Assembly: GCF_006345805.1 (NCBI RefSeq)
Contig: NC_043016.1
Location: 11,904,001 to 11,968,000 of the forward strand
Reading direction: 5' to 3'
Length of the DNA stretch: 64,000 nucleotides
Origin: Octopus sinensis
Lineage: Eukaryota
Both the position numbers and the translations under genes were made by a program. Positions 10,838 to 57,188 of this stretch are shown here, piece by piece (the first letter of the stretch is position 1; each line of letters begins with the position of its first letter). Under the pieces are notes generated by a model, which did no database searches, had not been told where the DNA came from, and saw nothing but the letters and a program-made list of their open reading frames with translations.

Positions 10838-11150
10838 AAACAATTGCAGCGTGGAAGGTGTTTGTAAGCCATTTAAGAAACACACAAAAGCCGTTCGATT
10901 CACTTCAACATTTAAGTTTAATTTGTCAAATATTTACATTGCTTTAAGACCGCGACCTGTTCACTGACAAAAATCCGTGCTGCATCTTAAAGCGACGAAA
11001 ATATTTTGACAAATTAAACTTAAATGTTGAAGTGAATCGAACGGCTTTTGTGTGTTTCTTAAATGGCTTATAAACACCTTCCACGCTGCAATTGTTTTCG
11101 TTCCAGCACACGATCTCAGATCAAATCACTTGCTATGCAAGTACATCTCT

Positions 11151-11153
<3 letters not shown>
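10838..11153. mobile_element. Head-to-head inverted short element (about 110-bp arms) carrying a hammerhead motif; probably PLE-derived
   Basis: arms 10838-10949 and 10985-11097 are reverse complements; another copy at about 57062-57188. Confidence 0.75.
10922..10972 (-). ncRNA. Type I minimal hammerhead-like motif with G3-C8 swapped core (this copy partly decayed)
   Basis: TTTGTCA GTGAACA G GTCGC-loop-GCAAT GTAA ATAT T TGACAAA; the duplicated arm at 10992-11013 preserves GCGAC GAAA ATAT TT TGACAAA. Confidence 0.55.
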
Positions 11154-11197
<44 letters not shown>

Positions 11198-11302
11198 TAT
11201 ACTAAATATATAAAAAACGAAGAACAAACACAAGAAAAAAATAATGTGATAACGTGGTACATGCAAAGTATTAGCAGATGCTCAATGAAGGAAAGAAAAG
11301 TA

Positions 11303-11338
11303 GCTTTACATTTCGAGCAAAGCTCTTCATCAGAAACA
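11303..11338 (-). ncRNA. Minimal type I hammerhead ribozyme motif in a short element (about 11210-11400)
   Basis: TTT CTGATGA A GAGC TTT GCTC GAAA TG TA AAG; homologous copy at 34788-34823. Confidence 0.65.
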
Positions 11339-11399
11339 GGAGACGGGGGGGGGGGGGGAAGTCCAAAAGGAAAGGAGGACAGAGGAAAAAAAATCACGA

Positions 11400-11538
11400 C
11401 TGGCTTCTTTCAGTTTCTGTCAACCAAATCCACTCACAAGGCTTAAGTTGGCCTGAAGACATTTGCCCAAGGTGCCATACACTGGGAATGAACCAGGAAC
11501 CATGTAACTGAGAAACAAACTTCTTACTACACAGCCAG
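11400..11538 (-). mobile_element. Family A SINE 5' fragment
   Basis: ggcttctttcagtttctgtc..tgcccaaggtgcc..ttactacacagcc. Confidence 0.7.
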
Positions 11539-11559
11539 CCTTTGTATGTGAAGAAATTG

Positions 11560-13482
11560 TTTTATTCAGTAACTTAAAACAATGGAACAAAATACATTAA
11601 GTCCTTTATAATTGTGACCTTTTTTTACTTGAACAAAATTTCTTCATAGTTTGTTCTTGTCTCTTTTAGAACTTGAATCTTTCTTTCAGATTTACATCTC
11701 AAATTAGATCATACATCCAGGTAGTCCTCACTATTAGCAGTGTGCTCATTTATTTAGCTGAAGGCATCAGTTTTATTATTGATTTTGTAAGAAGGGCCAA
11801 ATCACCTAAAAGTTTTTCTATTTTGTCAGAAATCTTATACATCATCATCATCGTCGTCGTTTAACATCCGCTTTCCATGCTGGCATGAGTTGGACGGTTT
11901 GACTGAGGACTGGCAAGCCAGAAGGCTGCACCTGGCTCCAATCTGATCTGGCAAAGTTTCTACAGCTGGATGCCCTTCCAAATGCCAACCAGTCCGAGAG
12001 TGTAGTGGGTGCTTTTACATGCCACCGGCACGATGATCAGTCAGGCAGTACTGGCAACGACCACATTCAAATGGTGTTTTTTTACGTGCCACCTGCAGAG
12101 GAGCCAGTCTGGCGGCACTGGCAACGACCACACTCAAATGTTTTTCACGTGCCAGTAAGGCAACGCTGGCAATGATAAAGCTCAAATTGTGTTTTTTATG
12201 TGTCACCAGCACGGGAGCCAGTCAGCGGCCCTGGCAACGATCACACTCAGATGGGGCTTTTAACGTTCCACTGGCACGGATGCCAGTAAGGCAACACTGG
12301 TAATGGCCATGCTCAAATGGTGTTTTTTATGTGTCACCAGCACGGGTGCCAGTCAGCGGCCCTGGTAACCATCATACTTTTAATGTTCCACTGGCACGGT
12401 TGCCAATCCTCTGTATAATTTCAGTAAGAAAAGAAATAAACTTTCTTTCTGTCTTTATACAGTCAACTAATATTTCTGAAGTATAACATTTTTCACTCAA
12501 TGTTGCTATGTCAGTGAGTTCTAAGCTTAATCCAGTGTGATATGATATGTCCAAATATCAAGCAGCTCAGCAACACCATACTTTCAGTGGAAAGCCATCT
12601 TGTTTGACGGTCTGATGGAATTGTCTGTGATTTTCCTTCATGTATAGCTTCATCTAAGATTTTTATGCTATTGATAAATAAATCACTTGCATGTTTCAGA
12701 GATAAGGAATACCAGATTTCAGATGGGGGGTAAATAGAATCAACTGGGGCATTACGATAAGTGATGGATTCTCTTTCTTGAATTTCTGATAAAAACCATT
12801 ATTTTATGCAAGCCATCAGACTTGTGCTGTCAGCGCCAACAGCCTTCAAGCTTAGTAACATCGGTTTTTTAAAATTCATTCTTTAACGCTTCAGTAATAT
12901 CCACTCGCATTACATACATCAAGCTCTACAATATCAAAAGTTGAAACTACTTTTTCCCTAATTATGATTGAAATAAATTACCAGCAAATATCAAGTATTT
13001 TATATATACAGATGTCATTTGACTTGTCTAAACGCAGGGGGTATTTACTATTACATATAACTATGAAATCATTTTCAAAATGAGGGATCAACTAAATATT
13101 TTTACTTGTAGGACTACATTTTCCATTTTGAAATAGTTTTACTATCTTTTGTATTCTTAAACATAACTGTTTCAGGGTAGAAAAAGCTTTTAACATTATA
13201 TTTCCTCTTCAAAATACGATAATGCAACGCATATTTGCTTAACAAACTTTATCAAGCAATAGTTGTCCCTGTAATTTTAATGTTTGTTTTTGTTTATTAT
13301 TATTTGTTTTTGTTTGTTATCATGATAAATTAAATCACTAAACTTAACATTTATCTTGCCCTTTCACGCCTAGCATTTCAGTTCCACTGAAACCATTATC
13401 TATTTCTTTTAACATGTCTTTAAACTCGGTTTTTAACTCATTGTCCTCTGAACTTTTGTTTATATTTCTTTACTTTCAGCAT
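11560..13482 (-). pseudogene. Decayed hAT-superfamily transposase (ZNF862-like), interrupted by an RTE tail
   Basis: hand translation across frameshifts gives, in the expected order: MLKVKKYKQKFR, C..(C)KGKINVKFSDLIYH, KYPLRLDKSNDI (cf. DESTD), VGADSTSLM..NGFYQKFKKENPSLI, QTRWLSTE, SEKCYTSEIL, KLLGDL. Confidence 0.75.
11840..12410 (-). mobile_element. RTE LINE 3' end with tandem UTR repeats
   Basis: (cat)n tail plus ctggcaacga..aaatggtg repeat units. Confidence 0.85.
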
Positions 13483-14693
13483 TAAGTGTTAGAAAATTTG
13501 TGAATTACACAACACAAGGCAAAGGGATGTCAGACGCTAATGAGTTGCAGTTAAATCGTACCAAACTCGTTAACTACATGTAACGAATCTATTACACGCT
13601 TGTAACGAAGTCTGTCCTGTAACTGTGTGCATTTACTACAGAAAAGGAAATGATACGTTTTGCTTTGTACCTCATGAAATTGATTCGCTTTTCGTCGGAC
13701 AAATTACAATTTCGCTCTTTTACATTTCTCATTCGTTTATTGCTTTTTACGTTTTTGCTTGACGTCTTCCTACTCTAATCACAGACACAGTAGCTCGAAC
13801 TGCTAGGAATAGTACCCAAATATCCCTCAACAGATAGTACAGATCTACTTTTAACACTTTTTTTTTGCAAACATTTACAAGAAAGATGTAATTTGCTTTC
13901 TTACTGAAATAAATTTTAACCAATAAGAAGGCTCCAAAGTTATAATATATCACTGAAATAATTCTAACGGAACTTGTTCCATTATTCGATATTGGTTCTT
14001 AAAAATGGTAAGGTGGAATCAATCGATCGGCCGTTTGTTATAAGTTACACTTCTCCGAATAAAAAGTAAAGTCGCTTATCAACCGCTTTTTTCTTCCCTT
14101 CAAACATCTATCTGAAAGGTTGAAACAAATATATTAGTGAAAATAATTGCGATCTTGAAGCATATTTCCTTTCAGTTTCGCAAATGTCAGTTGTAATAAT
14201 TCTCTGGGACAGAGTTTGGGAAACAATTGAAGGCAAAATTGCTATAACAATTTAAAGAATTGAAGAAAATAATGTTCATATAGCAAGGAGAATTTATGAT
14301 ATAAAAAAAGAGCGGAGTGGTTTGATCTAAGTTATTTAATGCTGATCTTTTTTAAAATCATTGAAAGTTACTTCAGTATTATTTTCCTTTCCATCTCTTT
14401 GTGAAATATAATGTTTTCTTTAAAAAAAGGAATTAGTTGACTGCATGTGTATCATTTCAGGCGGAAATTCGGATACAATGACCGACCACAAACAGGCTCT
14501 GCGCCTGTTGATTGTGGTTGACGAGTCGAATCGAAAGTATAAAAAGCGGATCTATTTTGGTGAAAAGCGAAACTAGGCCAAAGCAAAAATATTTCTTTGC
14601 ATTTTATTATATTTGCGTGCGCACGTATACACGCATGCACGCACACACACAACACATACTCTCTGTCTGTCTCTGTCTGTCTGTCTGTCTGTC

Positions 14694-14735
<42 letters not shown>

Positions 14736-14746
14736 CCTCCCTCCCT

Positions 14747-14833
14747 CTGTTGGTGCTGAAATTCCAATGAAGGTGCCTTGGATCTAGATTAGATCTATTG
14801 GCAAGAAATCTTGAAATAAAACTGAATAATGAC
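14747..14833 (+). repeat. Short microsatellite-flanked element, internally deleted copy of 34341-34453
   Basis: gaaattccaatgaagg..ggcaagaaatcttgaaataaaactgaataatgac shared with the reverse complement of 34341-34453. Confidence 0.65.
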
Positions 14834-14849
14834 ATACGCACACACACAG

Positions 14850-15192
14850 GTGTGGTAAGAAGCTTGCTTCCTAACCATGTGGTTCCAAGTTCAGTCCCAC
14901 TGTGTGGCACCTTGAGTGTGTTCTACTGTAGTTTTGAGCTGACCAAAGCCTTGGGAGTGGATTTGTTGGCCAGAAACTGAAAGAAGCCCATTGTGTGTGT
15001 GAGTGTCTGTGTTTGTCTCCCCCACCCATCACTGCTTGACAACCAATATTGGTGTGTTTTTGTCTCTGTAACTTAGCTGTTCGGCAAAAGAGACTGACAG
15101 AGTAAGTACTAGGCTTAAAAAAATAAGTGTTGGGATTGATTTTCAAGATGCTACTCCAGTCAACTAACTGAAACAAGTAGAAAAATAAAAGA
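14850..15192 (+). mobile_element. Family A SINE
   Basis: tgtggtaagaagcttgctt..gttcagtcccactg..actgaaacaagta. Confidence 0.8.
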
Positions 15193-15262
15193 ACACGCAA
15201 ACACATACATATAAACAAACAAAAGTAAGATTTAAAATCTCTTAGTATATCTGCAAAATAAA

Positions 15263-15647
15263 GCTGTGTGGTAAGTAGCTTGCTTACTAATGACATGGTT
15301 CCGGGTTCAGTCCCACAGCATGGCAACTTGGGCAAATGTCTTCTACTATAGCCTCAGGCTGACCAAAGCCTTATGAGTGGATTTGGTAGACGGACACTGA
15401 AAGAAGCCCATCGTATATATTTATATATGTGTGTGTGGGCATATGTTTGTGTGTCTGTGTTTGTACCACCACCCTTGCTTGACAACTGATCTTGGTGTGT
15501 TTACATTCCCATAACTTAGCAGTTCGGCAAAAGAGACCAATAGTATAAGTACTAGGTTTACAAAGAATAAATCCTGGGGTTGATTTGTTTGGCTAAAGGT
15601 GGTGCTCCAGCATGGCCGCAGTCAAATGACTGAAACAAATAAAAGAA
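15263..15647 (+). mobile_element. Family A SINE (near full length)
   Basis: tRNA-like A/B boxes, cttgggcaaatgtcttc CORE-like segment, tail aatgactgaaacaa. Confidence 0.85.
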
Positions 15648-15650
15648 ATG

Positions 15651-15687
<37 letters not shown>

Positions 15688-16119
15688 TTTAATATCCAGC
15701 TTCTATGCTTCTATGGATTGGAGGGTTTGACAGGATCCAATGAGCCAGGGGACTGCATTGAGCTCCAATGCCTGTTTTGGCTTGCTTCCAACGGCTGGAT
15801 GTTCTTCCTAAAGCCATCCACTTTACAGCATACAGGGCATTTTTTATGTGGTGCAGAGGTCTATGGTGAATAGGAGAGGACTAAGTTCTGGTGAACTCCT
15901 ACCAGTACACTACATTCATTACTATACTCTTCATTAACTCTCGCCTTACTGACAGTACCCTTGAATGTAGCTTGTATGGCTTTTATAAGTCATTCTTCTA
16001 CCCTTAGCATCTTCAAGGACAACCAATTGAATGAGTGACAGACCCTGTCGAAAGTTTTCTACAGGTTGACAAATAACTAGTATAGTAGTCTATTTTTAGC
16101 TAAATACTTCCGTAGTTAA

Positions 16120-16328
16120 TGGCTACTTTAATGTAGCTGTTCTGTAAGAGACAATGACACTGCCATTTAACCCCAGGAATACATCTCCAGCTGGTTCATA
16201 CTATGCACTTCTGGCACCTGATATTTATTGCAAGAAGCGCACTGAATAAACCTGCTGGAGGTCATGCCTTCTTAGGGTTAAATGGCAGTATCATTGCCTC
16301 TTAGAGGACAGCCACATTAAAGTGGCCA
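16120..16328. mobile_element. Foldback MITE, probably PIF/Harbinger (TAA TSD)
   Basis: taa|tggctactttaatg..cattaaagtggcca|taa with about 95-bp imperfect arms. Confidence 0.75.
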
Positions 16329-16624
16329 TAAGCAATACTTTTTGGTTCATATATTGCTTCTATCTCAAACAGAGATTTTCTAACAGACTTCTGTAGTTGT
16401 CTTACAAGAGGACATCAGAAGTACTTTTCCCTGGCACAAAATAAAACTGCATCAATGCTTTTTCCCTAATTAGTTGAGCTGTATCTCAGTAATACTTAGT
16501 TCAGTAGTCTGATACCTCTTTCATTGCTTCTAAGTCATCTCTTTTACTCTTGTAACAGTTAACTATATAATGCTGCAAACCAGTCGTTAGCAATAACACC
16601 TTTCTATACAAACTAATTAACTAT

Positions 16625-16950
16625 ACAGGTGACTACGCTCTATCCTCTTCTGCTAGATATTTTAAGTATCTCAGCAGTGATTCATAACAGACCAGGGACT
16701 TTTCCTGCCTTTATATTTTTTATTGCTTTATCTATCATAATGCTGTCAACTAAGATAACTGGTCTCTCTGTTCAGTCTACGATGAGAACATCTTTCTCCT
16801 TTAAATTCTCCACATTTAATAAACATTTCACAGAAACACTTCATTGCCTCTTTCTTTGCAGAATTACTAAATGCAGATACATCTTCCCACACTTCTCACC
16901 CACAACATCTCAATTCTCTCTGATAGAAGAGAGCAACATCAAGGATGTAT
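16625..16950 (-). mobile_element. Decayed RTE ORF2 fragment (pre-RT region)
   Basis: minus frame KNIKAGKVPGL..ITAEILK resembles KAPGPSGITAEMLK. Confidence 0.6.
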
Positions 16951-17209
16951 GAATCTTTCAACCCATCAATGCAAAAGGACTTTGTAAGCTGTTTCAAATT
17001 TTTTCTTTCTGGAAGAAAATGTCTTTTATTCCATTTTATTTTCACAAAAAAAATTAGCAGCAAGACTACTTTTTAGATTATCAAATATCCCTTGTTGAAT
17101 ATTTGTCCAACCAAATTCAACATTTTTCTTGTGCAAATTCAAAAATATTTTGATCTTTGAGAATAATTTGGTAAATATCAACCATAAAAATTTACCATTC
17201 CTGAAAACA

Positions 17210-17580
17210 ATCCTGTTTCTTTCTTAGATGTACAAAGTAGGACTGTCACTATTTCTTCTTCTGTTGCTACTGTGCCCAAATACATGACAAGCTTTGATAC
17301 GAGTGTGTCACAGATTTGTTACATGTAGATAATGAGCTTGGTGCTGTTTAACTGCAATTCATTAGCACGACATCCCTTGCCTTGTGTTGTGCAGTTCACA
17401 AATTTTCTAATACATAATACTGAAAGTAAAGAAATATAAACAAAAATTGAGAAAACAGTGGGTCAAAAATCAAGTTTAAAGGCAGGTTAAAAGAAGCAGA
17501 GAATGGTTTCAGTGAACCTCAATGCTGGGTGTGAAAGGGTAAGATAAATGTTAAAAGATTTGCAAACCAAACATTGAAGC
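17210..17580 (+). pseudogene. 5' part of a second copy of the same hAT transposase (UTR plus zinc finger)
   Basis: aligns to the reverse complement of about 13345-13690; LKVKKYKQKLRKQW..CWV*KGKINVK. Confidence 0.7.
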
Positions 17581-17632
17581 TTTTTTGTGAAATGAAGTAC
17601 CCAAAAATGATAACACTTCACTGTTAAGATAT

Positions 17633-19067
17633 CATCATCATTGTTGTCGTTGTCATCATCGTCATTATCATCATTTAACGTCCATTGTCCATGCTGGCAT
17701 GGGTTGGATGGTTTGACCAGGGCTGGCAAGCTGGAGAGCTGCACCAGACTCCAGTCTGCTGTGGCATGGTTTCTATGGCTGGATGCTCTTCATAACACCA
17801 ACCAATTTACAGAGTATACTGGGTGCTTTTATGTGGCACTGCACAGGTGCTTTTATGTGGCACTGCCATGAGTGCTTTTCACCACCAGAGGAACTGGTCT
17901 TAGCACTTTTGCTACAGAGTATTGGTCTTCTTGAGTACAGCAAGGTACCAGGCATCTTGGCCATTTGTCATCTCACCCGAGAGGTTCAAAGTCCTGAGGT
18001 CAATCTTCAGTACTTTGTTCCATATCTTCCTGGGTCTTCCACTTCCACCTGTTTTATTCCCTTTAAGAGATTGATACTTCTTTATGGAACTGTTGGCATC
18101 CATCTGCATTTTATGACCAAAACAGTGCTGTTGTCTCTCATGCACACAGCAACTAATTCCTCTTATGCCTAACTTCTCTCTCAAAACACTAATTCTCTGT
18201 CAAACATGTACACTTACATTACACATCCAGCAGAGCATACTAGCCTCATTCCTTTCTAACCTTCGCATGTCCTCTGTATTCAGGGCCCACGTCTCCCTAA
18301 CCATGTAGAATTGCTGTCTGTATACATGCATCATGCAACCTTCTTTTCACTCAGAGAGAGAAACCGTTCATTGCCAACAGAGGTAAAAGCTCTCTGAATT
18401 TCCTCCATCCTATTCTTATTCTAGCTATCACACTCTCCATGCAGAAGTTATCTGCTACCTCTAATGAGTCACCAGGACTTTTGAGAGAATCAATTTCTTG
18501 AGTCTCTAAAGTTTTTATGGATCCTCTGTATCTTCCACATACAAAAACTATCTTCTCTGATAACCTTCTTATTAATCCACTGCATCTCTTGTGTGTCCAT
18601 AGTTTACACTGGGTATACCATATGGAGTTCCTGCCTACACCATTCCTACAAATCGAATAGGGCCACCTGCCTGAAGCAAGTAAGGTCCTATCAGTTTTCT
18701 TGCTTTTTAGGATCTTAGTGTTTGCTAAGTTAACCTTAAGGCCCTTAGATTCCAGGTTCTGCTTCCACACTTGGAATTTCTCTTCTAACTCTGATATAGA
18801 ATCTACTATAAGGGCAAGATGATCAGCATGTAGTAGATCCCAGGGTCTGCCAGTCTTGAATTCCTTTGTTATGGCCCGAAGGACAATGATGAAAAGGAAG
18901 GGAATAAGGACCAAGCCTTGATGAACCGCTACCTGTACATCAAATTCTTTGCTGTGCTTGTGGTTTAGTCTCACCTTACTGACAGCATCTTTGTACATCT
19001 TTATGGCCTGTACAACTTTCACCAGCTGCTCATCTATCCCTAGCTTCCTCAGAGCCCACCATATCAC
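17633..19067 (-). mobile_element. 5'-truncated RTE LINE (RT, Cys-rich insert, thumb, 3' tail)
   Basis: ORF 18351-19067 VHQG..LFIIVL..LLHADHLALI; GRPRKIW at 17912-18184; (GAT)n tail. Confidence 0.9.
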
Positions 19068-19700: not shown

Positions 19701-20319
19701 TGTTGCCAGCTTGTACTATTTGGACATAATTGAATATTCTCTGTTAACATTTTAACATTTAAACCAGCCTTATCTGGCTCAAGTAGCTAGCCTACCTGTT
19801 TTATGTTACATGGAGTTTTAAATACAAATGAGGAGTAAATATGTAGTGAAGAAAAGAAAAAAAGAACATACAAACCAATAACTAATCTACTTTTTCTGAC
19901 ACGTACAAAAGACAACTTTGGTCATATTTCAGGCTTATTTTGACCTCATCAGCAAAAACATCAAGTTCACCATACTTGCTGAAATAGTGATGAAAGCATT
20001 AGTAAATATACAAAACTGTACAAAGGTGCTTTTATGAAGGTTGGCGGGTGGCTTACTAGAAACAACAGCCAAAGTCCTCTCAAACCACACCTTACCTTAG
20101 AAAAAACAAAAGGACATGTTAGGTATTGTTATCCTGCATACAATGTCTTAAATTAACCCATTAATGCATAATGTCTCCAAAATAGGACAGTCAGAAAATT
20201 GCACAATGCAATGAAATATTAATTTACATTTTAAATATTGTCCATATTGACTTTCCATGAACCCCCTCTGTTAGAATAAAGATCTTTTATAACTTTTTTT
20301 ACCCAGCATTATTTTTTAT

Positions 20320-29754: not shown

Positions 29755-29785
29755 CATATACATATATATACATATATATATGTAC

Positions 29786-29818
<33 letters not shown>

Positions 29819-29934
29819 GTTTGTACTGTCGTTACCGTCTTGCTTTTTTTACCCCTCTGCGAAAAGATCTCAGAATTTTAATTGATTTGCTTTTCGCAGG
29901 AAGGACTTTTCTTCGAAGTATACATCTCGCTTTT

Positions 29935-29984
29935 ATCCTTCGAAACGTTTAGTAGATGAAACCTTAGCGACTGAAGAAGGGGAT
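29935..29984 (+). ncRNA. Type II (open stem II) minimal hammerhead-like motif in a (TA)n-embedded element (about 29820-30175)
   Basis: ATCCTTC GAAA CG TT TAGTAG-loop-TTAGCGA CTGAAGA A GGGGAT. Confidence 0.45.
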
Positions 29985-30174
29985 TTTTCGTTGTGCTTAT
30001 TGTCCTGTATCTCTTTTTTTGCTTGTCTTGTTCCTTGGTTTGTGTCTATGTTTTTCGTCTCTCTATGTGTTCGACGTCTTTTTGGTGTCCTGTACACATA
30101 TATGCGTGTATATGTACATGTAGAGGTAGGTACGTACATATATGTTTATATATATGCATATGTTCTATTTTATT

Positions 30175-30218
<44 letters not shown>

Positions 30219-32635: not shown

Positions 32636-32690
32636 TAACAAAACTGTCTGACGAACGGGAACGTGAAACTCTGAGTAACAGCTTTTGTTA
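32636..32690 (+). ncRNA. Canonical type I hammerhead ribozyme
   Basis: stem I taacaaaa-ctgt/acag-c-ttttgtta; core CTGACGA; stem II ACG-GGAA-CGT; GAAA; stem III ACT-CTG-AGT; predicted GUA cleavage after 32677. Confidence 0.8.
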
Positions 32691-34787: not shown

Positions 34788-34823
34788 ATTTAATGTTTCG
34801 AGCAGAGCTCTTCGTCAGAAACA
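34788..34823 (-). ncRNA. Minimal type I hammerhead motif in a short element (about 34690-34905)
   Basis: TTT CTGACGA A GAGC TCT GCTC GAAA CA TT AAA. Confidence 0.65.
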
Positions 34824-36150: not shown

Positions 36151-37679
36151 AAAATTTCAAACATGCATGTATGTATATATGTATACGCAAGTGAAAAGAA
36201 AAAAAAAACAGGAACAAAAGAAAATAATACTCAAAAAATTTGGTTGCAGTTACATTTATTTAATAGCAATTTGACTCAGTTCCACATTACTCAAAGTTTC
36301 ACAGGTGTAGGATATGTCCACCTTATCAGATACTTGGCAGGAGTGTGAAGAGAATTTAAAAGAAATTTTAAATGGTTGCTAGATTTTTAGCCCTTTTGTT
36401 GCCATATTTCTTTTGAGATGCTCTGTGTTTCTTTCAATTAATTTTAAATATAATAAAGAATTTAGTAAAATAACTTAGTTATCATTAAGCTAGTGTTAGG
36501 AACATAAATTATGACTAAGATTTGATGGAAGATTTTAATTCAAAACTTTTGAAAGCAAAGAGCCAGAGGTGGTTTCAGGCAGGTTGGTTTCATAAGGATT
36601 AAGGTTCTAATGCCATACAGAAACACACTGGCTGGTTAAAGAATGTTGAGGTAACAGTTATTTCCACACATCCAAAAAAAAAAAAAATCCAAGTTCCTGG
36701 GGCTATACAAATGTTGATTCTGCCCTTTCCCATATACTGTTGAAATAATTTATGAATGGTGCAGCAATTCCTGCTTAACATCAACCAATCACCACACTAA
36801 TATAAAATAGGGTCACTATAAGATTAAAACCACTTGAAGTCACTCGCCCCACATACACATTTTTTTATATCTCTTTTTGGTAGCAACAACAAAGGAAGTA
36901 AAATGAATAAAAACTAAGTCGTGACACATCACTGCACATACTTGCCATAGAGGTGCCACCCACATACTTGCCATACTCACAGCCACCCACATGCTTGAAC
37001 ATGAATTCATCAATTGTATATGCTGGATGTTTATTGAATTGGGAAGTTATTTACATCAGCTGTTGTCCTGTTTATGCTTTCCTATATGACAAATGACGAA
37101 TTCTCCTTTGATCATGTGACTGGCTGCAAGCACATGTCATTGAAAAGGTCCAAAAAGGTCTCAAACTGCATCTGGCCACTGCTCAGATAAAATTTTTATC
37201 TCCCTCTGACATTTAATGTGTTTTTAACACCTGAAATCCATAAGACATTCTCCAGAGTAAATTCTGCAGTCACTGGTTTATCAACAATGTATATACAATT
37301 AGTATGACACAAAGATGGCTCTGTGTGTTGTGTGTGTGTGTGTGTGTGTGTGCACGCACGCACGTGCATGTGTGTGCATGGTGTGGTGTGTGTGTGTGTG
37401 TGCGTGTATGTCTTTTACCTCCTTCTTGTTTCACTCATTAGACTGTGGCCATGCTGGTGCACCACCTTGAAGGGTTTAATTCTTTTTAAGTCAATCTTTT
37501 ACTTACTTTTAAGTCAATCACTTTTGCCAAACTGCTAGGTCACATGAACATAAACATAAACACCACTGGTTCTCAAGAGAGGTAGGGACAAACACGAATA
37601 TGCACATATCCCTCCTTAAACACACACACACATACACAATGTAGTTTTACATACTTTCTTATTTCTTTATTTCCCACAA

Positions 37680-37822: not shown

Positions 37823-39398
37823 ATAAAAGATATACAGGGATTGATTTGTTCAACTAAAACCCTTCAAGGTGGTGCCCCAGCATGGCCATAGTCCAATGAC
37901 TGAAACAAGTAAAAGATAAAAGATATACAGGGATTGATTTGTTCAACTAAAACCCTTCAAGATGGTGCTCCATCCAGCATGGCCACAGTCCAATGACTGA
38001 AACAATAAAGATAAAAGATATACAGGGATTGATTTGTTCAAGTAAAACCCTTCAAGTGGTGCCCCAGCATGGCCACAGTCCAATGACTGAAACAAGTAAA
38101 AGATAAAAGATATACAGGGATTGATTTGTTCAATTAAAACCCTTCAAGGTGGTGCCCCAGCATGGCCACAGTCCAATGACTGAAACAAGTAAAAGATAAA
38201 AGATATACAGGGATGATTTGTTCAAGTAAACCCCTCAGATGGTGGTCCCAGCATGGCCACTCCAATGACTGAAACAAGTAAAAGATAAAAGATATACAGG
38301 ATTGATTTGTTCAACTAAAACCCTTCAAGGTGGTGCTCCCATGGCCACAGTCCAATGACTGAAACAGTAAAAGATAAAAGATATACAGGGATTGATTTGT
38401 TCAAGTAACCCTTCAAGATGGTGCTCCAGCATGGCCACAGTCCAATGACTGAAACAAGTAAAAGATAAGTGATATACTGTGATTGATTTGTTCAACTAAA
38501 ACCCTTCAAGTGGTGCCCCGCAGCATGGCCACAGTCCAATGACTGAAACAAGTAAAGATAAAAATATACTGGATTGATTTGTTCAACTAAAACCCTTCAA
38601 GGTGCTGCCCCAGCATGGCCACAGTCCAATGACTGAAACAAGAAAAAGATAAAAGATATACTGGGATTGATTTGTTCATCTAAGAACCTTCAAGGTGTTG
38701 CTCCAGCATGGCCACAGTCCAATGACTGAAACAAGTAAACGATAAAAGATATACTGGAATTGATTTGTTCAACTAAAACCCTTCAAGGTGGTGCCCCAGC
38801 ATGGCCACATTCCAATGACGAAAACAAGAAAAAGATAAAAGATATACTGGGATTGATTTGTTCATCTAAGAACCTTCAAGTGTTGCTCCAGCATGGCCAC
38901 ATCCCAATGACTGAAACAAGTAAAAGATAAAAGATATACTGGAATTGATTTGTTCATCTAAGAACCTCAAGGTGTTGCTCCAGCATGGCCACAGTCAATG
39001 ACTGAAACAAGTAAAAGATAAAAGATATACTGGAATTGATTTGTTCATCTAAGAACCTTCAAGGTGGTGCCCCAGCATGGCCACATTCCAATGACTGAAA
39101 CAAGTAAAAGATAAAAGATATACTGGGATTGATTTGTTCATCTAAGAACCTTCAAGGTGTTGCTCCAGCATGGCCACAGTCCAATGACTGAAACAAGTAA
39201 AAGATAAAAGATATACTGGGATTGATTTGTTCATCTAAGAACCTTCAAGGTGTTGCTCCAGCATGGCCACAGTCCAATGACTGAAACAAGTAAAATAAAG
39301 AAGATACTTGGAATTGATTTGTTCATCTAAAACCCTTCAAGGTGGTGCCCCAGCATGGCCACATTCCAATGACTGAAACAAGTAAAAGATAAAAGATA
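37822..39398 (+). repeat. Tandem array of 17 units of about 93 bp derived from the family A SINE 3' end
   Basis: unit gggattgatttgttcaactaaaacccttcaaggtggtgccccagcatggccacagtccaatgactgaaacaagtaaaagataaaagatatac(a/t); 17 aatgac markers counted. Confidence 0.95.
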
Positions 39399-39440
39399 TT
39401 AACATTGGGCGATATTCTTGAGAGTATTTGGAATCTTACC

Positions 39441-48419: not shown

Positions 48420-49330
48420 GTCAACAGCTCTTCATAGTTGGGGTGGTACATGCTGCAATACTAAACTTCATTCCAATGTCTTTAGAGCACCAGTGAACAG
48501 TTCTGACCAGTGAATCACCTTGTGGTTCATTCTTGTCAAAGAGTTTCAACTCATCCATAAAATGTAGATGGTTGATCTTAGGTCCTCTGTTTTCAATCTG
48601 TTACCAGCAAAGTCATCACTAATGGAACCATGGCAATCATAAAAGATGCAACGGTGAGAATGAATTTCCTTGGAACATTCCTCTTTTAATCTCAACCACA
48701 CCTAGCAGTTTATTTCCTACATACAGATTTGTTTTCTACAAAGGCATGCTAGATTCCATTACTTTAACAACACAACCTGCTATTCCAAACATTCTCAAAC
48801 ATTTCAGTACCCATTAATATGGGAGCATGTCAAAGGATTCCTGCGCAAGCCATACATAAATTTAGATGACTTTGGCAATCTTTTATGATTATCTTGTCAG
48901 TAGAAAGATGTAGCCCTTATTTTTCTACATCTCTTCTGCTCAAATATTAGCATCTCATTCTGAAGCAAGTGAACTTTTGCAGCAAAAGTACCCATCAACA
49001 GCCTACAAAGTAAATACAAGCACACATCTATCTTCTGTAATTTTCAACTAATGGACCCTTCATTTTATTCTTCAATATCAAATTTGTCTTCCCTTCAACC
49101 ATCCAGCTTAGAACTTCTCCTTGTACTACACAATCGTTTAGGTGCTTCCTTAGTCTTGAATGAACACTTTTAAATCTTTTCAGCAAGAATCTTTGAATCC
49201 CATCTGGTCCAAGAAATTTCCAGTTTGGTATTTTCCTTACTCTTGAAGGCCTTTCTTATCTCTGTTTTTGTACATTAGATAACTTATATTTAACTTCATC
49301 TTTTCTATTTTGCACCATTGTTATGCTCTT
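48420..49330 (-). mobile_element. Older R4/Dong-like RT fragment
   Basis: antisense NWKFLGPDGIQ and INHLHFMDELKLF motifs. Confidence 0.6.
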
Positions 49331-49774
49331 TTGTAACCCCACCATCATAAATTTGACTCAGTACCTTTTGTTCTCTCTAAACACTAAAGAAGCTCACCTA
49401 GGACAAGTGAAACAGCTTGTGAAGGTGAATGGTTGGGAAAGCACAAGTTGCCATCCCAGCTAAGGCTTTGACAGCAACTACTTGAAAGGCAGTAATGTAT
49501 CATTGTGTGTTGGCTAAAACCCAATGTCTAGAAGCATTGATACATATCTAGGACTTATGGGCAGACATAGAACATGTCCCATATGCAACAGAAAGTTCAT
49601 CACGTACCCAACTTATTCAGAGAGAAGGACCTATTGCATCAAGATAGAGGGAGTTCCACCTGGACTGGACATCTGGTGATTGTTAGCCTGTGTTACTTTG
49701 GAAGGAAGATATTATTTGAAGAGAAACGAACAGAGAGGGAGTTTTGGTCTGAGACCACTGAAGAGATCCTGTAG

Positions 49775-51310
49775 GAAGGTAGACAAATCATAAATCCCTT
49801 CAGGTAGAAGGCCCTACTTGATCTGTAGAAAAAGTGTCAGTAAAAACTCCATATGATGTACTTGGTGTAAGCTATGGACACATAAGAGGTGCAGCAATAT
49901 CAGAGAAAGGTCAACAGGGATTATAGTTTTTGTGTGTGGCAGATGCACAGATACAATAAACACCAAAAATGTACAGAAAATAGATTCCATCACCTGTCAG
50001 AGGGAAAAACTAGAAGTAGTCAACAGCTTCTATTATCTAGGTGACCAAGTCAGTAGTCAGGTGGATGCTCTGAGAGCATAGCTGCTAGAAAAATAGGCTG
50101 GGCAAAGTTCAAAGAGCTCCCACCTCTGCTGGCAACAAAGGGCCTCTCACTCAGAGTAAAAGGCAAACTGTATGATGCCTTTGTACAAACAGCCATGCTA
50201 CACAGCAGTTTAACATGGGCTGTGACTGCTGAGGACATGTGTAGGCTTGAAAAAAATGAAGCTAGTATGATCCTCTGGATGTGTAATGTCAGTATGCATA
50301 CATGACAGAGTGTAAGTGCTCTAAGAGAAAAGTTGGACATAAGAAGCATCAGTTGTGGTGCACAAGAGAGGTAACTGTGCTAGTATGGTCACGTGATACT
50401 TATGGATGAGGACAGCTGTGTGAAAAAGTGTCACACTCTAACATGGAGGGAACCTGTGGAAGAGGTAGACCCAGGAAGAAATGGGATGAGGTGGTGAAGC
50501 ACGATCTTCAAATGTTGGGCCTCACAGAGGCAATAACAAGTGACAGAGACCTTTGGAGATATGCTGGGCTTGAGAAGATCTGTCAAACCAAGAGAGATCA
50601 CAGTTGTGGCCTATGCCATGGTCACATGACTGGCCCATTAAAAGCACCCTTCAATCATTGGGCAATATCCTGTGCTTGTGAAGATCTGTTGAACTGAGTG
50701 AAGATGTGGTTGTAGCTGATGCCAGTGTTGTCTGACTGGCACCCATACTGGTGGCACATAAAAAGCATCATTTGAGCATTGAGCCTCATGGAAGCAGTGA
50801 TGTCAAGCGAAGTGAGATCATAGTTGTAACCGATGCCAATGTTGCATAACTGTTCTGTTGAAAGCACCCTTCAGCCGTTGGGCAATATGCCATGCTTGTG
50901 AAGCCCTGTTGAAATTGCAGTCATGCCTGATGCCAGTGCTATCTGACTGGTGACACGTAAAAAGCACCGTTTGAGCAGTAGGTGTCATGGAAGTAGTGAC
51001 AGGTAACTAAGACCTTTGGCAATATACCATGCTTGTGTACACCTGTCAAGCCAAGTGAAACCATGATCATGACCAATGCCAGTGTCAGGTCATTGGCACC
51101 AGTGCTAGTAGCACATAAAAAACACCCACTACACTCTGAAAGTAGTTGGCATTAGGAAGGGCATCTAGCCGTAGAAACCTTGCCAAATTCAGATTGGAAC
51201 CTGGCACAGTCCTCTGGCTCACCAGTTTTCTGTCAAACTGTCCAACTCCTGCAAGGATGGAAAGCAGACGTTAAATAATGATGATGACGACGATGACGAT
51301 GATGATGATA
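49775..51310 (+). mobile_element. 5'-truncated RTE LINE with 3' repeats and tail
   Basis: Cys-rich insert, F.YLGD, GRGRPRKKW..DRDLWR, (GAT)n tail. Confidence 0.9.
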
Positions 51311-51799
51311 TATGGATAATTTGGCTGCTATTTCTAACATGTTGAATGACCATTTAGTGGCTGCTTCATCAGCTTCTCTGCTAATCATGTATCTTTATTT
51401 AGTAACTTTCTTGTCCAACTCCTGCTGGCATGGAAGAAAACAGACATAAAAATTATGATGGTAGTGGTGTATACGGTGCTCATGGTGTCCGTGGTACTGG
51501 TGGCAGTATCATGGCAGTGATTATGGTGGTGGTGGTGGCCATAGTAATGGTTTATACAATTAAATCCATATCATGGTTTTACCTGTTAATCTGAGTGGAT
51601 CCTGTGGATTGCCAAATCCTCTCGGAATAATATGGGTATGAATCCCAGCATGGAATGGCATAGCATTATGGATTTAATGATATAGTTAGTAAATAGAAAC
51701 ATACTTTCATACATACACCTCCATACACATACATATCCTTCTCTTTCTATTTTTGTTGTGTACACTTGTGTGTGTCTCTTTATTATATGTGTTTGCATG

Positions 51800-51800
51800 C

Positions 51801-51833
<33 letters not shown>

Positions 51834-52478
51834 GAGGAAAGAGAGGAGAGGGGAGAGAGAGAAAAAAGAGAGGAGTGGGTGAGGAGTAGAAGAGTGTGAG
51901 TGGAGAGAGAAAGAGAGAGACATTGAGAGAGCGAAGAGAGAGATAGAGAGAAAGAGAAAGAAGAGAGAGAGAGAAAGAAAGAAGAGAGAAGTGTGTGAGA
52001 GAGAGAGAGTGTGAGAGAGAGAGAGTGAGAGAGCGAAGAGAAAGGAGTAGATTCGAAAGAGAGAGAGAAGAGAGAAAGAAAGAAAGAGAGAGAGTGTGTG
52101 AGAGAGAGAATGAGAGAGAGAGAGGGAGAGAGAGAGAGAAAGAGAGAGAGAGTGAGTGAGTGAGAGAGAGTGTGAGAGAGAGAGAAAGAGAGAGACAGTG
52201 AGAGAGCGAAAGAGAGAGATAGAGAGAAAGAGAAAGAAAGAGAGAGAGAAAGAAAGAGAGAGAGTGTGTGAGAGAGAGAGTGTGAGAGAGAGAGTGTGAG
52301 AAAGAGAGAAAGAGAGAGAGAGTGTGAGAGAGAGAGAAAGAGAGAGACAGTGAGAGACCGAAAGAGAGAGATAGAGAGAAAGAGAGAGAAAGAAAGAAAG
52401 AGAGAGAGTGTGAGAGAGAGAGAGAGAGAGTGTGAGAGAGAGAATGAGAGAGAGAGAGAGAGAAAGAGAGAGAAAAGC
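51800..52478. repeat. Complex (AG)n polypurine tract
   Basis: direct reading. Confidence 0.95.
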
Positions 52479-52984
52479 AGACAGAACAATATGGACAAAT
52501 GCTACCACTGACGTGCCTCTGCACCCTTTCCTCTTCATAACTTTTCTACTGTGATCTGGTAGTCTTGGAGGTGGCCATGGCAGTTGTCCCCAGCTAGCAA
52601 TGTAAGCAAGAATGCTTATATGCACCAAAAGCTGTATGAGAGGTTCATTCATGGTAACCATTGCTTGCATTCCATATTGCAACACAATATCCACTTTTAA
52701 GTGGTGATAAATATTATCTTTTGATATTATAACTGCTTCTGTTGTTAATAATTATTTTTTGATAAGCCTACTAGCTATTTGTGACACCGGTACCTGAGAT
52801 TCTATATATAGATACTGAAATTCTATATATGTCATTTCTGGACATATCATTGTTGTTTCCAGCGGTCAAGCACCTACCACTGACAAAGCCAAGGAAGACC
52901 TAAATCACATGATCTGGTAGTCTTGGTGGTGGCAGTGGCAGTTGAGGTGTCTTTCTGCTAGCGATGTAAACAAGAGTGCTTATA

Positions 52985-53201
52985 AAGGGAAAGTTTACGA
53001 AAATAAACAAAAGACGAAGGCAGGTGGAGTACAAACAAACAAATGTATTAGTATAGCACTCAGGATAGAAAAAGTTTTTACGTTTCGAGCCTACGCCTTC
53101 GACAGAAAGATACACAGAAAAAAACAAGGGAGAAAAAAAAAGGAGAGAAAAATGCATGTAGGAGCTAACGATCTATCATGGCGTCCTGACTTCAGACAGA
53201 C
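52985..53201 (-). mobile_element. 217-bp hammerhead-bearing element with 10-bp TSD
   Basis: TSD agtgcttata at 52975-52984 and 53202-53211; motif TTT CTGTCGA AGGC GTAG GCTC GAAA CG TA AAA at about 53076-53108. Confidence 0.75.
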
Positions 53202-53867
53202 AGTGCTTATATACACTGAAAGCCAATACAAGAGGTTCTCTCATGGCAACTATCACAGTATCCTATGTTCTAACACAACATCCACCTTTTAATGGTATTA
53301 ATACTGATTCTGTCACTATGAATTAATTTTTACTATTCCGTCTTTTAACCTGTGTATTATACACATGTACTATGCCTTTGTCATTGTTGTCTTCTTTTAT
53401 TCGACTTGTGGCTGCTTTCTTCCTTCCCTCTTTCACCATTTTCCAAAGTGTTGTAGTGCATCTGAGCACTGTATATAAAGAAAGCTTGTTATTAAGTGAC
53501 GAGCTGGCAGAACCATTAGCATATATTGAGTGACATGCTTAGCAGCATTATTTCTTTTGGCTCTTTATTTTCTAAGTTCAAATGCTGCTGAGGTCAACTT
53601 TGTGTTTTTATCCTTATGGGGTCGATAACATAAAATGCCAGTCAAATATTGCCAGTGGGGAGGAGGGGTGTCAATGTAATCGACTTCCCTTCTCCCTCAA
53701 AATATTGCTGACCTTATGCCAAAATTAGAAAAAAATTATCATCATTATCATCATGACTAGTTAGATAAATAGATAGATATGCAATAATATTATTTCATTT
53801 CTGCCCACCACACATCCACTCACCAGGCTTTGGTTAGCTCTGGGCTATATATATAATATTATATTAT

Positions 53868-53910
<43 letters not shown>

Positions 53911-54049
53911 ATTCAGTTAGAGATTATGTTAGCCTCATGAAGGGATGGTGTCATCCCAGGAAATACTGGTTCAATACCAAATATTTTGGAGGCAATAGAT
54001 TTCCTTAAAATAATAGGCTTGCATATAATCCGTAGTTTATATTCATGCA

Positions 54050-54585
54050 AAGGAAAAAAAAAAAAAGAGAAGAAAACGGAAATGTTGAAGTTAATAAGAG
54101 TTTATTATCAGCAACAAAGTGATCATTATCCCTTACATCTCTTTCAATTATACTCAGTGAAATTAATTAAATATTAAATTCATATTTCTGAGCATAATCA
54201 CTTTAGACGGAAAAAATATATATCCTTAGATGTTATGTATGTTTGTTACTAGATTCATTGTAGCAGACTGAATGATACTGTTCATGGTTTGTATTTATAT
54301 GTTTTTTGGGTGAGGGGTTTGCAGGTTGGTTGGAGGGAAGATAGAATAGGTAAATAGAGTAATAAATTAGAGTAATAAAAGAATGAATAAATAGAGATTA
54401 TAGAGTAAATTATAATATAAATAAAGTACAATATAATCTCTGAAGAGATTATGATCAGAAATATGAATTTAATATTCATTAAACTTCACTAAGCTTAATT
54501 GAAACAGCTGTAAGGGATAATGATCGATTTGTTGCTGATAATAAACTCTTATTAACTTCAAAATCTCGATTTTCTTCTTTTTCCT
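54050..54585. mobile_element. Head-to-head inverted element (about 150-bp arms) with hammerhead motif
   Basis: about 54050-54207 is the reverse complement of about 54438-54585. Confidence 0.75.
54437..54516 (+). ncRNA. Type I hammerhead-like motif with extended stem II
   Basis: TCT CTGAAGA GATT-(46 nt)-AATT GAAA CAGCTG TA AGG. Confidence 0.55.
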
Positions 54586-54618
54586 ATGTATGTATGTATG
54601 TATGTGTGTGTGTGTGTG

Positions 54619-54658
<40 letters not shown>

Positions 54659-54984
54659 TGCGTGCATGCGTGAGTGCATGCATGAACGGATGGATATTGT
54701 TCCATGATGATAAGATCAACAAAAAAAAGTACTCCATCTGGTGAGAGATGAATACAATGTTTTTATGGGCTACTATTAGTTTCATGTGATGAGAGCATCA
54801 AAGTACCTGAAGATTGAACTGAGATACCAGATGTGTTAAAAAATACTGTCTGGTATGCTCTCATCGAATGAAACAAAAAATAGCACATAAAAACATGTAT
54901 TGAGTTTATTAAATTATATATATATAATGATAGATCGTTAGCCACTACACACATTCTTTTTCTCTCCTTGTTTTTTCTGTGTCC

Positions 54985-55020
54985 CTTTCTGTAGAAGAGC
55001 GTAGGCTCGAAACGTAAAAG
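54985..55020 (+). ncRNA. Minimal type I hammerhead-like motif, A6U core, in element about 54927-55111
   Basis: CTTT CTGTAGA A GAGC GTAG GCTC GAAA CG TA AAAG. Confidence 0.65.
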
Positions 55021-55302
55021 ACTTTTTCTATTCCTGAGCGTTATACTAATACATCTGTTTGTTTTGTACACCAACTGTCTTCGTCTTTTGTTTATTTTCG
55101 TAAACTTTCCCTATATATATATATATATATAGTAGGAGACATTTTCCCAAGGTTCCGCAAAATGGGACTGAACACAAGGCCACATGCTTGAGAAGCAAGC
55201 TGTTTAACCCCACAGCTATGTCTATGGTGAAATAGGGAGAATTATGCCCGCTTTGATCAGTTCTATATAGAAGAAAATCACAATTCATAATGAACTACAT
55301 TT

Positions 55303-55697
55303 TCTTTACTTGTTTCAGTCATTTGACGGCGGTCATGCTGGAGCACCGCCTTTAGTCGAGCAAATCGACCCCGGGACTTATTCTTTGTAAGCCCAGTACT
55401 TATTCTATCGGTCTCTTTTTGCCGAACCGCTAAGTGACGGGGACGTAAACACACCAGCATCGGTTGTCAAGCAATGCTAGGGGGACAAACACAGACACAC
55501 AAATACACACTCGTACATACATATATATATACATATATACGACAGGCTTCTTTCAGTTTCCGTCTACCAAATCCACTCACAAGGCTTTGGCTGGCCCGGG
55601 GCTATAGCAGAAGACACTTGCCCAAGATGCCACGCAGTGGGACTGAACCCGGAACCATGTGGTTGGTTAGCAAGCTACTTACCACACAGCCACTCCT
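55303..55697 (-). mobile_element. Family A SINE (full length, young)
   Basis: close match to 21202-21604 and 60002-60393. Confidence 0.9.
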
Positions 55698-55707
55698 AAA
55701 CATTAAG

Positions 55708-55930
55708 TTTAACCCTTTAGTGTTTAAACCGGCCATATCTGGCCAGAATATTATTCTTGTTTTATGTTCAAGCTTGTGACATTCAGCCTCTCACACCTAC
55801 CCTACAATGCCATTCTAAAGATAAATAATCACATCATCAAAATCTTGAAGCTATGAGACAAGGCACAATTAATTCCAAAACAATGTGAATAAATATTACA
55901 TTTGACAGAGTAATCTAAACTCTAAAGAGT
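55708..55930 (-). mobile_element. TTAA MITE (second family)
   Basis: ttaaccctttagtgtttaaaccggccatatctggcc.. Confidence 0.75.
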
Positions 55931-57061
55931 GAAAATGAAAAACCCTGACCAACAGACTCCAACAAATGATAATAAAACAAACAACAATAACCTTTCGTTT
56001 AATGAATTTGTTTTTTCTAAACGCTCATATGCTTTTTGTCATTAATCATACATAAATCCAGTAAGTAGAATGCTTGGGCTATAAAACAGCAGATTTAGTG
56101 CCATTGATAAAAGAAAAGAAAAGAAATCAACTTTGTGTATGATTGGAGATCTGGGATGGGATGAGAGAGAGAGGATGTAATCGTAAGTGACTTTTATAAG
56201 AAGTTTTAGTGAAGACTTACAATGTGAATGACTTGAATTGCTAACAGCTTTAAGAGGCCACCTTTCAACCAGCAAAAACTCTTATCTTTGCCACTTTAGA
56301 TTTATAGATTAATATATAAATATAGTGGATGTCAGCACAGACTTAATAGGCTTAAAATTATTCAACAATAACAACAACAAAAAAGTAAAAAAAACAAATA
56401 AACTATAACTATTGGGAGTTATACTTTGATATACCATGTAACTGTTTTGGTTTAGGAAGAGCTGTGTGCCATTGATTGGTCTAATATTTCTCATAATGAG
56501 AGGTGAGGAGGACCGAGGTGTTCTGTGAATTGCCATGTGCAATTTTTTTTATTTGTTTTAGTCAAAAGACCGCAGCTGTTCTGGAGAGATGTACTGCCTT
56601 GAGTGATGTTTTAGTCAAAGAGATCAACTCCAGGGCTAATTATCTGGACAAGTAGGGTATCTATTCTATCAGCCTCTTTAGCTAAAACCACCAGGTTTCG
56701 TTAATGTTAAACAAACCAACATCATTTGTCAAGTAGTGGCGGTGGGCAAACACAGATACAAAGAGACATACGCGCGCGAACACGCACACACACACGCACA
56801 CACACACACACACACATGTAACAGAACAACACACACAACATAGGTGTGTGCGTCTCTCTCTCTCTCTCTCTCTCACTCACTATGCACGCCAACAAACAAA
56901 CAAAAAGAACGCAGCTCTGATAACTGACAGAGTCAACGATTTTTGAAAAGGTTGCAAGACGCAACGAAAATTTTTACAAAAAATTAGTAGAAATCGGTGA
57001 GTGTGTAGTTTATAAGACACTAAAAGAGAATGACTCTCCTCCCCACGCACACATATATATA

Positions 57062-57188
57062 TTACGGAGATGTACTTGCATAGCAAGTGACCTGATCTGA
57101 GATCGTGTGCTGCGTGGAAGGTGTTTATAAGCCATTTAAGAAACACACAAAAACAGTTAGATTCATTTCAACATTTAAATTTAATTTG
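57062..57188 (-). mobile_element. Truncated copy of the 10838-11153 element
   Basis: gagatgtacttgcatagcaagtga..gccatttaagaaacacac..ttaatttg. Confidence 0.8.

Follow-up and report, generated by a model that had tools for sequence, protein, structure and literature searches.

Hammerhead ribozyme motifs of Penelope-like element families in an Octopus sinensis genome segment, with a predicted type-SGC permutation in non-coding tandem units

The 64,000-nucleotide stretch of the Octopus sinensis genome described here (NCBI RefSeq assembly GCF_006345805.1, contig NC_043016.1, positions 11,904,001 to 11,968,000 of the forward strand; 'the window', numbered from its first letter) contains eleven sites at which a first-pass annotation had proposed hammerhead ribozyme motifs. 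Hammerhead core pieces are present at all eleven, and a search of the 2.72-Gb, repeat-rich animal assembly placed them in nine multi-copy families, which we call A, B, C, D, E, E2, F, G and H. In eight of these families, the motif is a minimal type I hammerhead near the 3' end of Penelope-like elements (PLEs) that target (TA)n. The ninth, family D at 29935, has the blocks of its motif in a different order and is the main subject of this paper.

On single window copies, the hammerhead signal is modest. At its strictest setting, a type I descriptor that leaves N3, N6 and N8 open matched the window five times, compared with a mean of 1.12 (maximum 3) in 40 local dinucleotide shuffles, and only five of the eleven sites passed at any of three settings. 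For this reason, the genome was searched with each element, and the case rests on the families. Rfam returned no match in the window at its gathering score, no hammerhead among the 150 listed of 245 weak window matches, and no hammerhead in five loci carrying the family D type of motif, in line with the earlier expectation that strict models would miss these variants.

The features of the family D locus are as follows.

29769..30178, plus strand: family D element flanked by (TA)n runs, a copy truncated at the 5' end whose full non-coding unit is 856 bp
29919..29995, plus strand: predicted type-SGC hammerhead motif (non-circularly permuted), with C3-G8
29922-29931, plus strand: SGC block S, with the predicted cut after C29926
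29935-29948, plus strand: SGC block G, in which G12 is 29942
29966-29984, plus strand: SGC block C, with the core at 29971-29977

The window copy is 94.7% identical to unit positions 448-860 of a tandem locus (L131). The first-pass annotation had filed 29935 as type I, but GAAA stands before CUGAAGA at this site, so the motif is not type I but of another, rarer kind. A type II arrangement with a hairpin as stem I was also rejected, because no such stem forms. The 3' strand of stem III, the cut site and a stem I strand complementary to the bases preceding CUGAAGA all come from the sequence 15 nt upstream of GAAA. Read 5' to 3', the blocks are cleavage site (S), GAAA (G) and CUGANGA (C), all within ~80 nt, the arrangement of type SGC, a non-circular permutation of the hammerhead.

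Across the genome, a three-block SGC pattern matched 1,462 times, compared with 0 in the control, and a looser two-block pattern (GAAAC...CUGAWGAAG) matched 6,353 times, compared with 127. Patterns that exclude the D consensus reveal further SGC subfamilies. In an unselected set of 104 instances from 100 stretches of contig C1 (96 from the listed two-block matches and 4 from another pattern), the S block scored 7-8 of 8 in 64; four were unrelated chance matches, and most of the others were truncated within the motif. As a control, a score of 7 was reached in 0/104 at 12-100 nt downstream or 25-110 nt upstream, and scores of 7-8 in 0/117 viral matches to the same pattern. The spacing from N17 to G12 is 13-16 nt in 64/64 intact copies. 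The core letters (CUGAnGA, GAAA), U16.1 and H17 are invariant in the SGC alignment; CUGAnGA and GAAAC were required by the search patterns and H17 by the score, and U16.1 is in register with the covarying stems described below. C11.1 is found in 127 of 130 instances and G10.1 in 126 of 130, with one extra nucleotide between A9 and G10.1.

The other block orders, sought in 919 kb of loci and window, gave few matches (CSG 1, GCS 6, GSC 1, SCG 4), and these were rejected as loose AT-rich matches without a recurrent family. Directly upstream of stem III and the S block, most SGC subfamilies have a hairpin and a conserved GAAG, which could stack on stem III or could be a relic GAAA block.

The predicted stems were examined for covariation in 132 distinct instances, less 15 with a microsatellite upstream; the remaining 117 form 45 groups, chance matches included. 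With their own S blocks, the 45 clusters form 201 Watson-Crick pairs, compared with 141.9 +/- 7.3 for permuted partners (0/20,000). In an anchored test, where one stem is fixed and the other tested in 12 multi-copy clusters, stem III has 34 pairs against 19.2 expected (0/20,000) and stem I has 43 against 28.1 (6/20,000). Pairs were also counted in 26 sequences that had been picked because their S block was readable and then cut back to that block, a selection that inflates the percentages: stem I is 98.4% and stem III 92.3% paired, with slid controls at 34-52%, and there are 86 two-sided changes compared with 29.7 in shuffles. We read these counts as covariation of the predicted stems I and III across subfamilies. 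A candidate fourth helix that would join the remaining sides of stems I and II is only suggestive (80/20,000 on 14 representatives); in several subfamilies it is long.

The small excess on single window copies would also be expected if the motifs were chance matches in AT-rich repeats, multiplied by transposition, and amplification alone gives high copy counts. Chance does not predict the compensatory changes between families, seen in stems I and III of the SGC motif and at the 3-8 pair of the type I motifs, nor a position 7 that is free beside a fixed U6 and G8 in family F. The cross-family permutation tests have largely refuted this explanation already, and we give it next to no weight.

The family D units are non-coding, 834-914 bp in length (15 tandem units measured), and loci are mostly 1-3 units long. 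The 23 distinct D1 loci comprise 12 partial tandems, 1 inverted locus and 10 single copies, and 22 of them share one 3' end followed by a TA-rich run, the exception being the inverted locus. Three-unit arrays occur, and some copies extend ~50-70 bp into the next unit, like a PLE tail. Non-coding tandem units were seen only in family D and its relatives. Contigs of four sequencing runs, presumed to be RNA although not recorded as such, cover most of the D unit; contigs of this kind cannot reveal ends or expression. A loose contig end at the unit was discarded, as it maps once, to a low-complexity Ser/Thr-rich host coding stretch; an exon-like, Ser/Thr-rich, mucin-like host coding stretch lies at L416 (G000:C1:42385162-42388183).

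PLE fragments upstream of SGC motifs in L128, in L298/L299/L389/L557/L653 (one place) and in L357/L390 were rejected as coding partners because microsatellite runs intervene. L376, the sole case without an intervening microsatellite, was rejected as a chimera that stops in the middle of an open reading frame (ORF). At this locus (G000:C1:134241400-134245600), a PLE reverse transcriptase (RT) fragment runs straight into an SGC-type element, and the junction is possibly a template switch between two RNAs.

With many copies in tandem, the three blocks might act across units or molecules in the conventional topology (C, the next G and a third S), in which case the local SGC order would be incidental. 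Some subfamilies keep palindromic ACGU at 15.1-15.4, as in dimer-type motifs. We regard this arrangement as very improbable: stem III is non-palindromic in most subfamilies, and the N17-to-G12 spacing is tight, conserved and near the ~3-nt linker geometry that Eckert et al. (PMC10085705) give for validated type-SGC ribozymes.

The 5' ends of insertions carry a further signal. We took 90 copies by a 3' anchor ~170-240 nt downstream, which avoids selection on the motif (first 30 places, three patterns). Ten of the 90 5' ends lie within 15 nt upstream of G12, compared with 1.5-1.7 expected, and all ten are at 6-15 nt, in the stretch from the predicted cut (14-16 nt upstream) to GAAA. The peak rate is 1.08 per nt per 100 at risk, compared with 0.11-0.23 in seven other bins (Poisson P ~1e-5; scan-statistic P 0.0026). 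This pile-up past the predicted cut is an indirect sign of SGC cleavage in vivo.

We read the window sites as the 3' ends of PLE families with hammerheads, and 29935 as one of a set of non-coding tandem units whose SGC motif probably cleaves itself as a monomer; we put the probability of this reading at roughly three in four. Tandem or read-through transcripts would be cut at the hammerhead, and the RT-endonuclease of a PLE, acting in trans, would prime on nicked (TA)n DNA, so that copying would start at a fixed point ~250 nt past the motif. Copies made from cut RNA would stop at the cut, i.e. end just after N17, and uncut multimeric or circular RNA would be read on to give partial tandems. 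Type I motifs with a palindromic stem III would act as dimers, while the SGC stem III, being 4-5 bp and intramolecular, would need no partner. As the SGC cut falls at the 5' edge, the core would stay on the template and the 5' piece would be held by stem III alone. The weak stem II would keep the motif slow or protein-assisted, and a low rate may permit read-through copies; the Anolis PLE hammerhead is protein-assisted (Frangieh et al., PMC11167929). As a speculation, the SGC motif may have arisen from tandem type I motifs by loss of the intervening blocks.

Several points weigh against self-cleavage of the SGC motif in PLE-dependent units. Beyond G10.1-C11.1, the predicted stem II is weak, mostly G-U or bulged (3,237/20,000 in the anchored test, 8,200/20,000 by duplex energy and 785/20,000 in a bulged register), and the constancy of C11.1 and G10.1 is partly due to most loci having been fetched with patterns that require them. 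The fourth helix falls to 1,906/20,000 on 12 consensuses. In the largest subfamilies, every pair of an alternative register, GAAGG/CCUUC, that would trap G8 and A9 is Watson-Crick. At 16.2 (29924), the window copy carries A instead of the family's G, which leaves one stem III mismatch. The sample of 5' ends overlaps the 104-instance set in which the peak first appeared, and most of the ends lie 6-8 nt short of the cut and not exactly there, so RT stalling or end-joining effects are possible. In type I family E, 0/30 5' ends fall within 25 nt after its cut. No coding element is joined to the SGC motif in 249 instances with at least 1 kb upstream (redundant loci included). Finally, in Anolis, insertion in vitro did not require the PLE hammerhead, and its cut site showed no RNA ends (Frangieh et al., PMC11167929).

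The weak stem II, the fully paired inactive register, the truncations short of the cut and the dispensable cleavage in the Anolis in vitro system would all suit a hammerhead-derived folded RNA that no longer cuts, in which stems I and III are kept for recognition or pausing by a PLE protein and RT stalls give the 5' ends; predicted folds also show local hairpins after the core. We consider this unlikely, given that N7 and N17 vary whereas U16.1, A15.1 and every core letter stay constant. As conserved alternatives, the local hairpin is without covariation (7,884/20,000) and the G8/A9-trapping register is not significant (1,727/20,000). An RT at the peak would already be past the partners of stems I and III, leaving little structure on which to stall, and active natural hammerheads with a 1-2-bp stem II exist, according to Perreault et al. 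(PMC3088659). Self-cleavage as a monomer remains the reading that we prefer for the SGC motif.

Family F, the second subject of interest, has two copies in the window.

52975..53211, minus strand: family F copy between 10-bp direct repeats (52975-52984 and 53202-53211), the 3' end of a coding PLE
53075-53109, minus strand: family F motif of this first copy, core CUGUCGA (A6U), C3-G8, stem II shortened
54927..55117, plus strand: second family F copy, with the motif at 54985-55020, core CUGUAGA (A6U), C3-G8, stems complete

The direct repeats agree with the target-site duplication that had been proposed for one copy. The CUGANGA core given for the sites in general is right for 29935 (CUGAAGA) but not for 53076 and 54985, both of which are CUGUNGA.

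The parent of family F is a coding PLE family with 13,222 genome candidates, an RT, a weak GIY-YIG match and frames of up to 975 amino acids (aa). The family F motif terminates its 550-1,200-nt CT-rich 3' region in 25 of 30 loci, and both window copies match this coding family at 78-80%. Family F is therefore the truncated tail of an RT + GIY-YIG element and not a retrozyme. The idea of PLE-dependent, retrozyme-like elements put forward in the first-pass annotation is sound in that the hammerheads are of PLE type, but 'retrozyme-like' does not suit all families, F being a coding PLE tail. Families A, B, C, E, E2, G and H might represent tails left by truncation, either of coding or of non-coding elements. 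An RT + GIY-YIG ORF joined to the motif was not found for the eight families other than F or for any SGC subfamily, and tblastn with two PLE proteins found no PLE coding sequence in the window.

With positions 6-8 left free, the F pattern matched 14,990 times in the genome, compared with 0 in the control. Among the 100 matches listed, U6 is present in 99 and G8 in 98, while N7 is U in 49, A in 22, C in 17 and G in 12. A free N7 beside fixed U6 and G8 suggests that the family carries a selected A6U core. The A6 of the minimal PLE hammerhead is lacking in family F only and is found in the other families. A6C is known as a weak natural variant (PMC3088659, PMC7151607); among the papers that one literature search listed, none reports an A6U hammerhead.

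Another coding PLE, with an 804-aa frame, an RT at the Pfam cut-off and a weak GIY-YIG match, has 18,471 first-look candidates; it terminates in its own U3-A8 motif. At L265:4560-4620 and in loci L235-L264, the U3-A8 motif at the end of an abundant coding PLE combines a 7-bp stem I with a stem II of only 2 bp. A PLE beside family A in L007 was rejected as the family A parent, as it ends in its own U3-A8 motif.

The remaining features of the window belong to the other type I families.

10838..11150, both orientations: family A element, a 5'-truncated plus-strand copy (GAAA half and tail) joined to an inverted minus-strand copy
10922..10972, minus strand: family A type I motif, G3-C8 core GUGAACA, 7-bp stem I, stem II broken, A13 changed
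11303..11337, minus strand: family B type I motif, C3-G8, complete
19916..19958, minus strand: family C type I motif, C3-G8, old and decayed (U16.1 and C11.1 changed)
32644..32681, plus strand: family E type I motif, C3-G8, complete, with a 4-bp stem III and a 1-nt loop
34788..34822, minus strand: second copy of family B, C3-G8, one stem III mismatch
36284..36333, minus strand: family E2 type I motif, C3-A8 in the window copy, C3-G8 in the consensus
54064..54207, minus strand: inverted partner of family G, core decayed
54437..54517, plus strand: family G type I motif, C3-G8, long loop II, palindromic stem III
56940..56977, plus strand: family H type I motif, U3-A8 core UUGAAAA, 5-bp stem II, stem I decayed
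57053..57188, minus strand: short copy of family A, 5'-truncated and without the core

The type I families add new members to a known class of motif, and two of their cores, G3-C8 and A6U, are unusual. Work by Lunse et al. in 2017 reportedly belongs beside the minimal hammerheads of metazoan PLEs. The genome search and consensus building that had been recommended, carried out on 24-30 copies per family, restored complete minimal type I motifs for A, H, B, E, E2, F and G. Genome candidates, counted as lower bounds from a first look with 40 scored per family except C, number at least 346 for A, 992 for H, 3,555 for B, 24 for C, 1,406 for D, 1,403 for E, 85 for E2, 478 for F and 779 for G. The consensuses of A, B, E, E2, F, G and H have a Watson-Crick 3-8 pair (G3-C8 in A, U3-A8 in H, C3-G8 in B, E, E2, F and G), stems I and II, and palindromic 15.x-16.x; in most type I consensuses, an extra nucleotide separates A9 from stem II, and stem III is palindromic. 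The family C consensus fits a type I motif only after allowing CpG decay, and U4C is found in part of family E.

All families end at a TA-rich microsatellite 100-250 nt past the motif and have ragged 5' ends. Inverted partner copies are common, with window cases at 10838-11150 and 54064/54437, and the family A self-match at 10838-11097 is 88%. Fixed 3' ends at (TA)n, 5' truncation, partial tandems and inverted 5' copies make up an anatomy of PLE type. The three families said to have two copies in the window (11303/34788, 53076/54985 and 10838/57108) were recovered, the core being absent from the family A copy at 57108-57188. Less exact were the size of 150-350 bp, since several elements are longer in other genome copies, and the mention of one decayed copy, since four to six more are decayed (10922, 19916, 36285 and 56933, with smaller defects at 34788 and 53076). 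In family E (L757-L786), 8 of 30 copies start 37-40 nt ahead of the predicted cut, where stem I has its 5' edge, and often at an inverted junction; this cluster may be an alignment artefact or may come from a reference belonging to another subfamily. Type I singletons with a long loop II and a 6-9-nt palindromic stem III occur in the flanks of six loci (L011, L127, L232, L322, L388 and L408), and the genome contains many more hammerhead families than are seen in the window.

A Watson-Crick relationship between core positions 3 and 8 had also been claimed. In the window, N3/N8 is G-C at 10922, U-A at 56933, C-A at 36285 and C-G at the other eight sites, and the single exception is indeed the decayed copy at 36285, whose consensus is C-G. 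Scanning 1.41 Mb of fetched loci without fixing N3 or N8 gave 100 distinct matches in 27 clusters, of which 26 have a Watson-Crick pair (C-G, U-A, G-C or A-U). The seven clusters of at least two copies are C-G (5), G-C (1) and U-A (1), and the 20 singletons are C-G (13), U-A (4), G-C (1), A-U (1) and A-G (1). As the loci were fetched with the flagged families, the clusters do not form a random sample; the singletons, however, are incidental. Within clusters, six single copies break the pair, and the covariation lies between families, as would be expected under selection on master elements. The claim stands on these counts but is not new: U3-A8 has been reported in Schistosoma PLEs, with ~1,300 matches (Cervera and de la Pena 2014, PMC4209133), and a C3G/G8C double mutant partly rescues the Anolis PLE hammerhead (PMC11167929).

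Type-SGC ribozymes (HRIMA-1 and variants) were reported in 2023 from metatranscriptomes only (Eckert et al., PMC10085705). Family D resembles them in its S-G-C block order, full canonical core, covarying stems I and III, 5-6-bp stem I, short linker to the 3' strand of stem II and candidate fourth helix. Unlike them, it has thousands of copies in an animal genome, in PLE-type retroelements, and its stem II is weaker, with an extra nucleotide between A9 and G10.1. We found no report of an SGC permutation in an animal genome in the literature covered, which included few subscription papers, and the Eckert supplements could list further hosts.

Minimal type I hammerheads have been described in the pseudo-long terminal repeats of metazoan PLEs (Cervera and de la Pena 2014, PMC4209133). 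The window type I families share with those motifs the type I order, the extra nucleotide at 9/10.1, G10.1-C11.1, a palindromic stem III, many variable families per genome, opposite-strand pairs and the U3-A8 variant. The portion of that paper used mentions neither a natural G3-C8 family in multiple copies nor an A6U family of very large size in which N7 is free, and family D differs from its motifs in not being type I. Non-LTR (long terminal repeat) retrozymes, which have been proposed to derive from and depend on PLEs (PMC7229834; bioRxiv 10.64898/2026.07.22.740005), are, like family D, non-coding, hammerhead-bearing head-to-tail units in animals. They have ~300-bp monomers, canonical type I motifs and demonstrated circular RNAs, whereas family D has units of 834-914 bp and an SGC motif; neither the D-type units nor family F are ~300-bp tandem monomers with a canonical type I motif. 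Neptune-type PLEs with a C-terminal endonuclease have an RT, a Cx2C linker, GIY-YIG and a (TA)n bias (PMC8557442). The two abundant coding families described above are similar, with an RT, a CxxC linker and GIY-YIG, and they end in a hammerhead motif and (TA)n; this clade assignment is by motifs, not by a tree, and the other window families lack a coding part in the copies examined. The 2026 Octopus vulgaris repeat annotation (PMC13282606) does not mention ribozymes in the portion used.

What is new here is the SGC group, both as a variant and in its setting; the type I setting, including U3-A8, is already published. With somewhat less confidence than in self-cleavage itself, we lean towards an active, pseudoknotted SGC hammerhead in a PLE-dependent, non-autonomous radiation, the first in the genome of a known organism, which would have arisen from PLE type I motifs separately from the environmental RNA cases, would cut as a monomer in vivo and would have left its cut site in ~1/10 of insertions, together with a functional A6U hammerhead in a coding PLE of ~15,000 copies. 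The first reports of a natural RNA in non-circularly permuted form date from 2023 and concern environmental RNA with no known host; thousands of copies in at least a dozen covarying subfamilies would place the permutation in a host and a genetic context and would amount to a natural mutational scan of it. SGC copies in an animal retroelement would suggest that an origin from PLE hammerheads is possible. The pile-up of 5' ends bears on whether PLE hammerheads cut the transposition template in vivo, no such ends having been seen in Anolis. A large class of retroelement ribozymes escapes both type I descriptors and Rfam, so PLEs described without a hammerhead merit searching for each of the six block orders. 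A good natural series, though one of a known kind, is formed by the type I families whose cores are C-G, U-A and G-C.

Two other kinds of repeat were observed in the window, and its SINE-like elements resemble those of Octopus. A 248-bp tandem unit (~3 copies) occupies 6874-7597, and a dispersed partial copy of it at 36385-36548 adjoins the family E2 motif. Tandem arrays of a 93-bp unit derived from a short interspersed element lie at 3009-3503 (5 copies) and 37823-39399 (17 copies), in opposite orientations.

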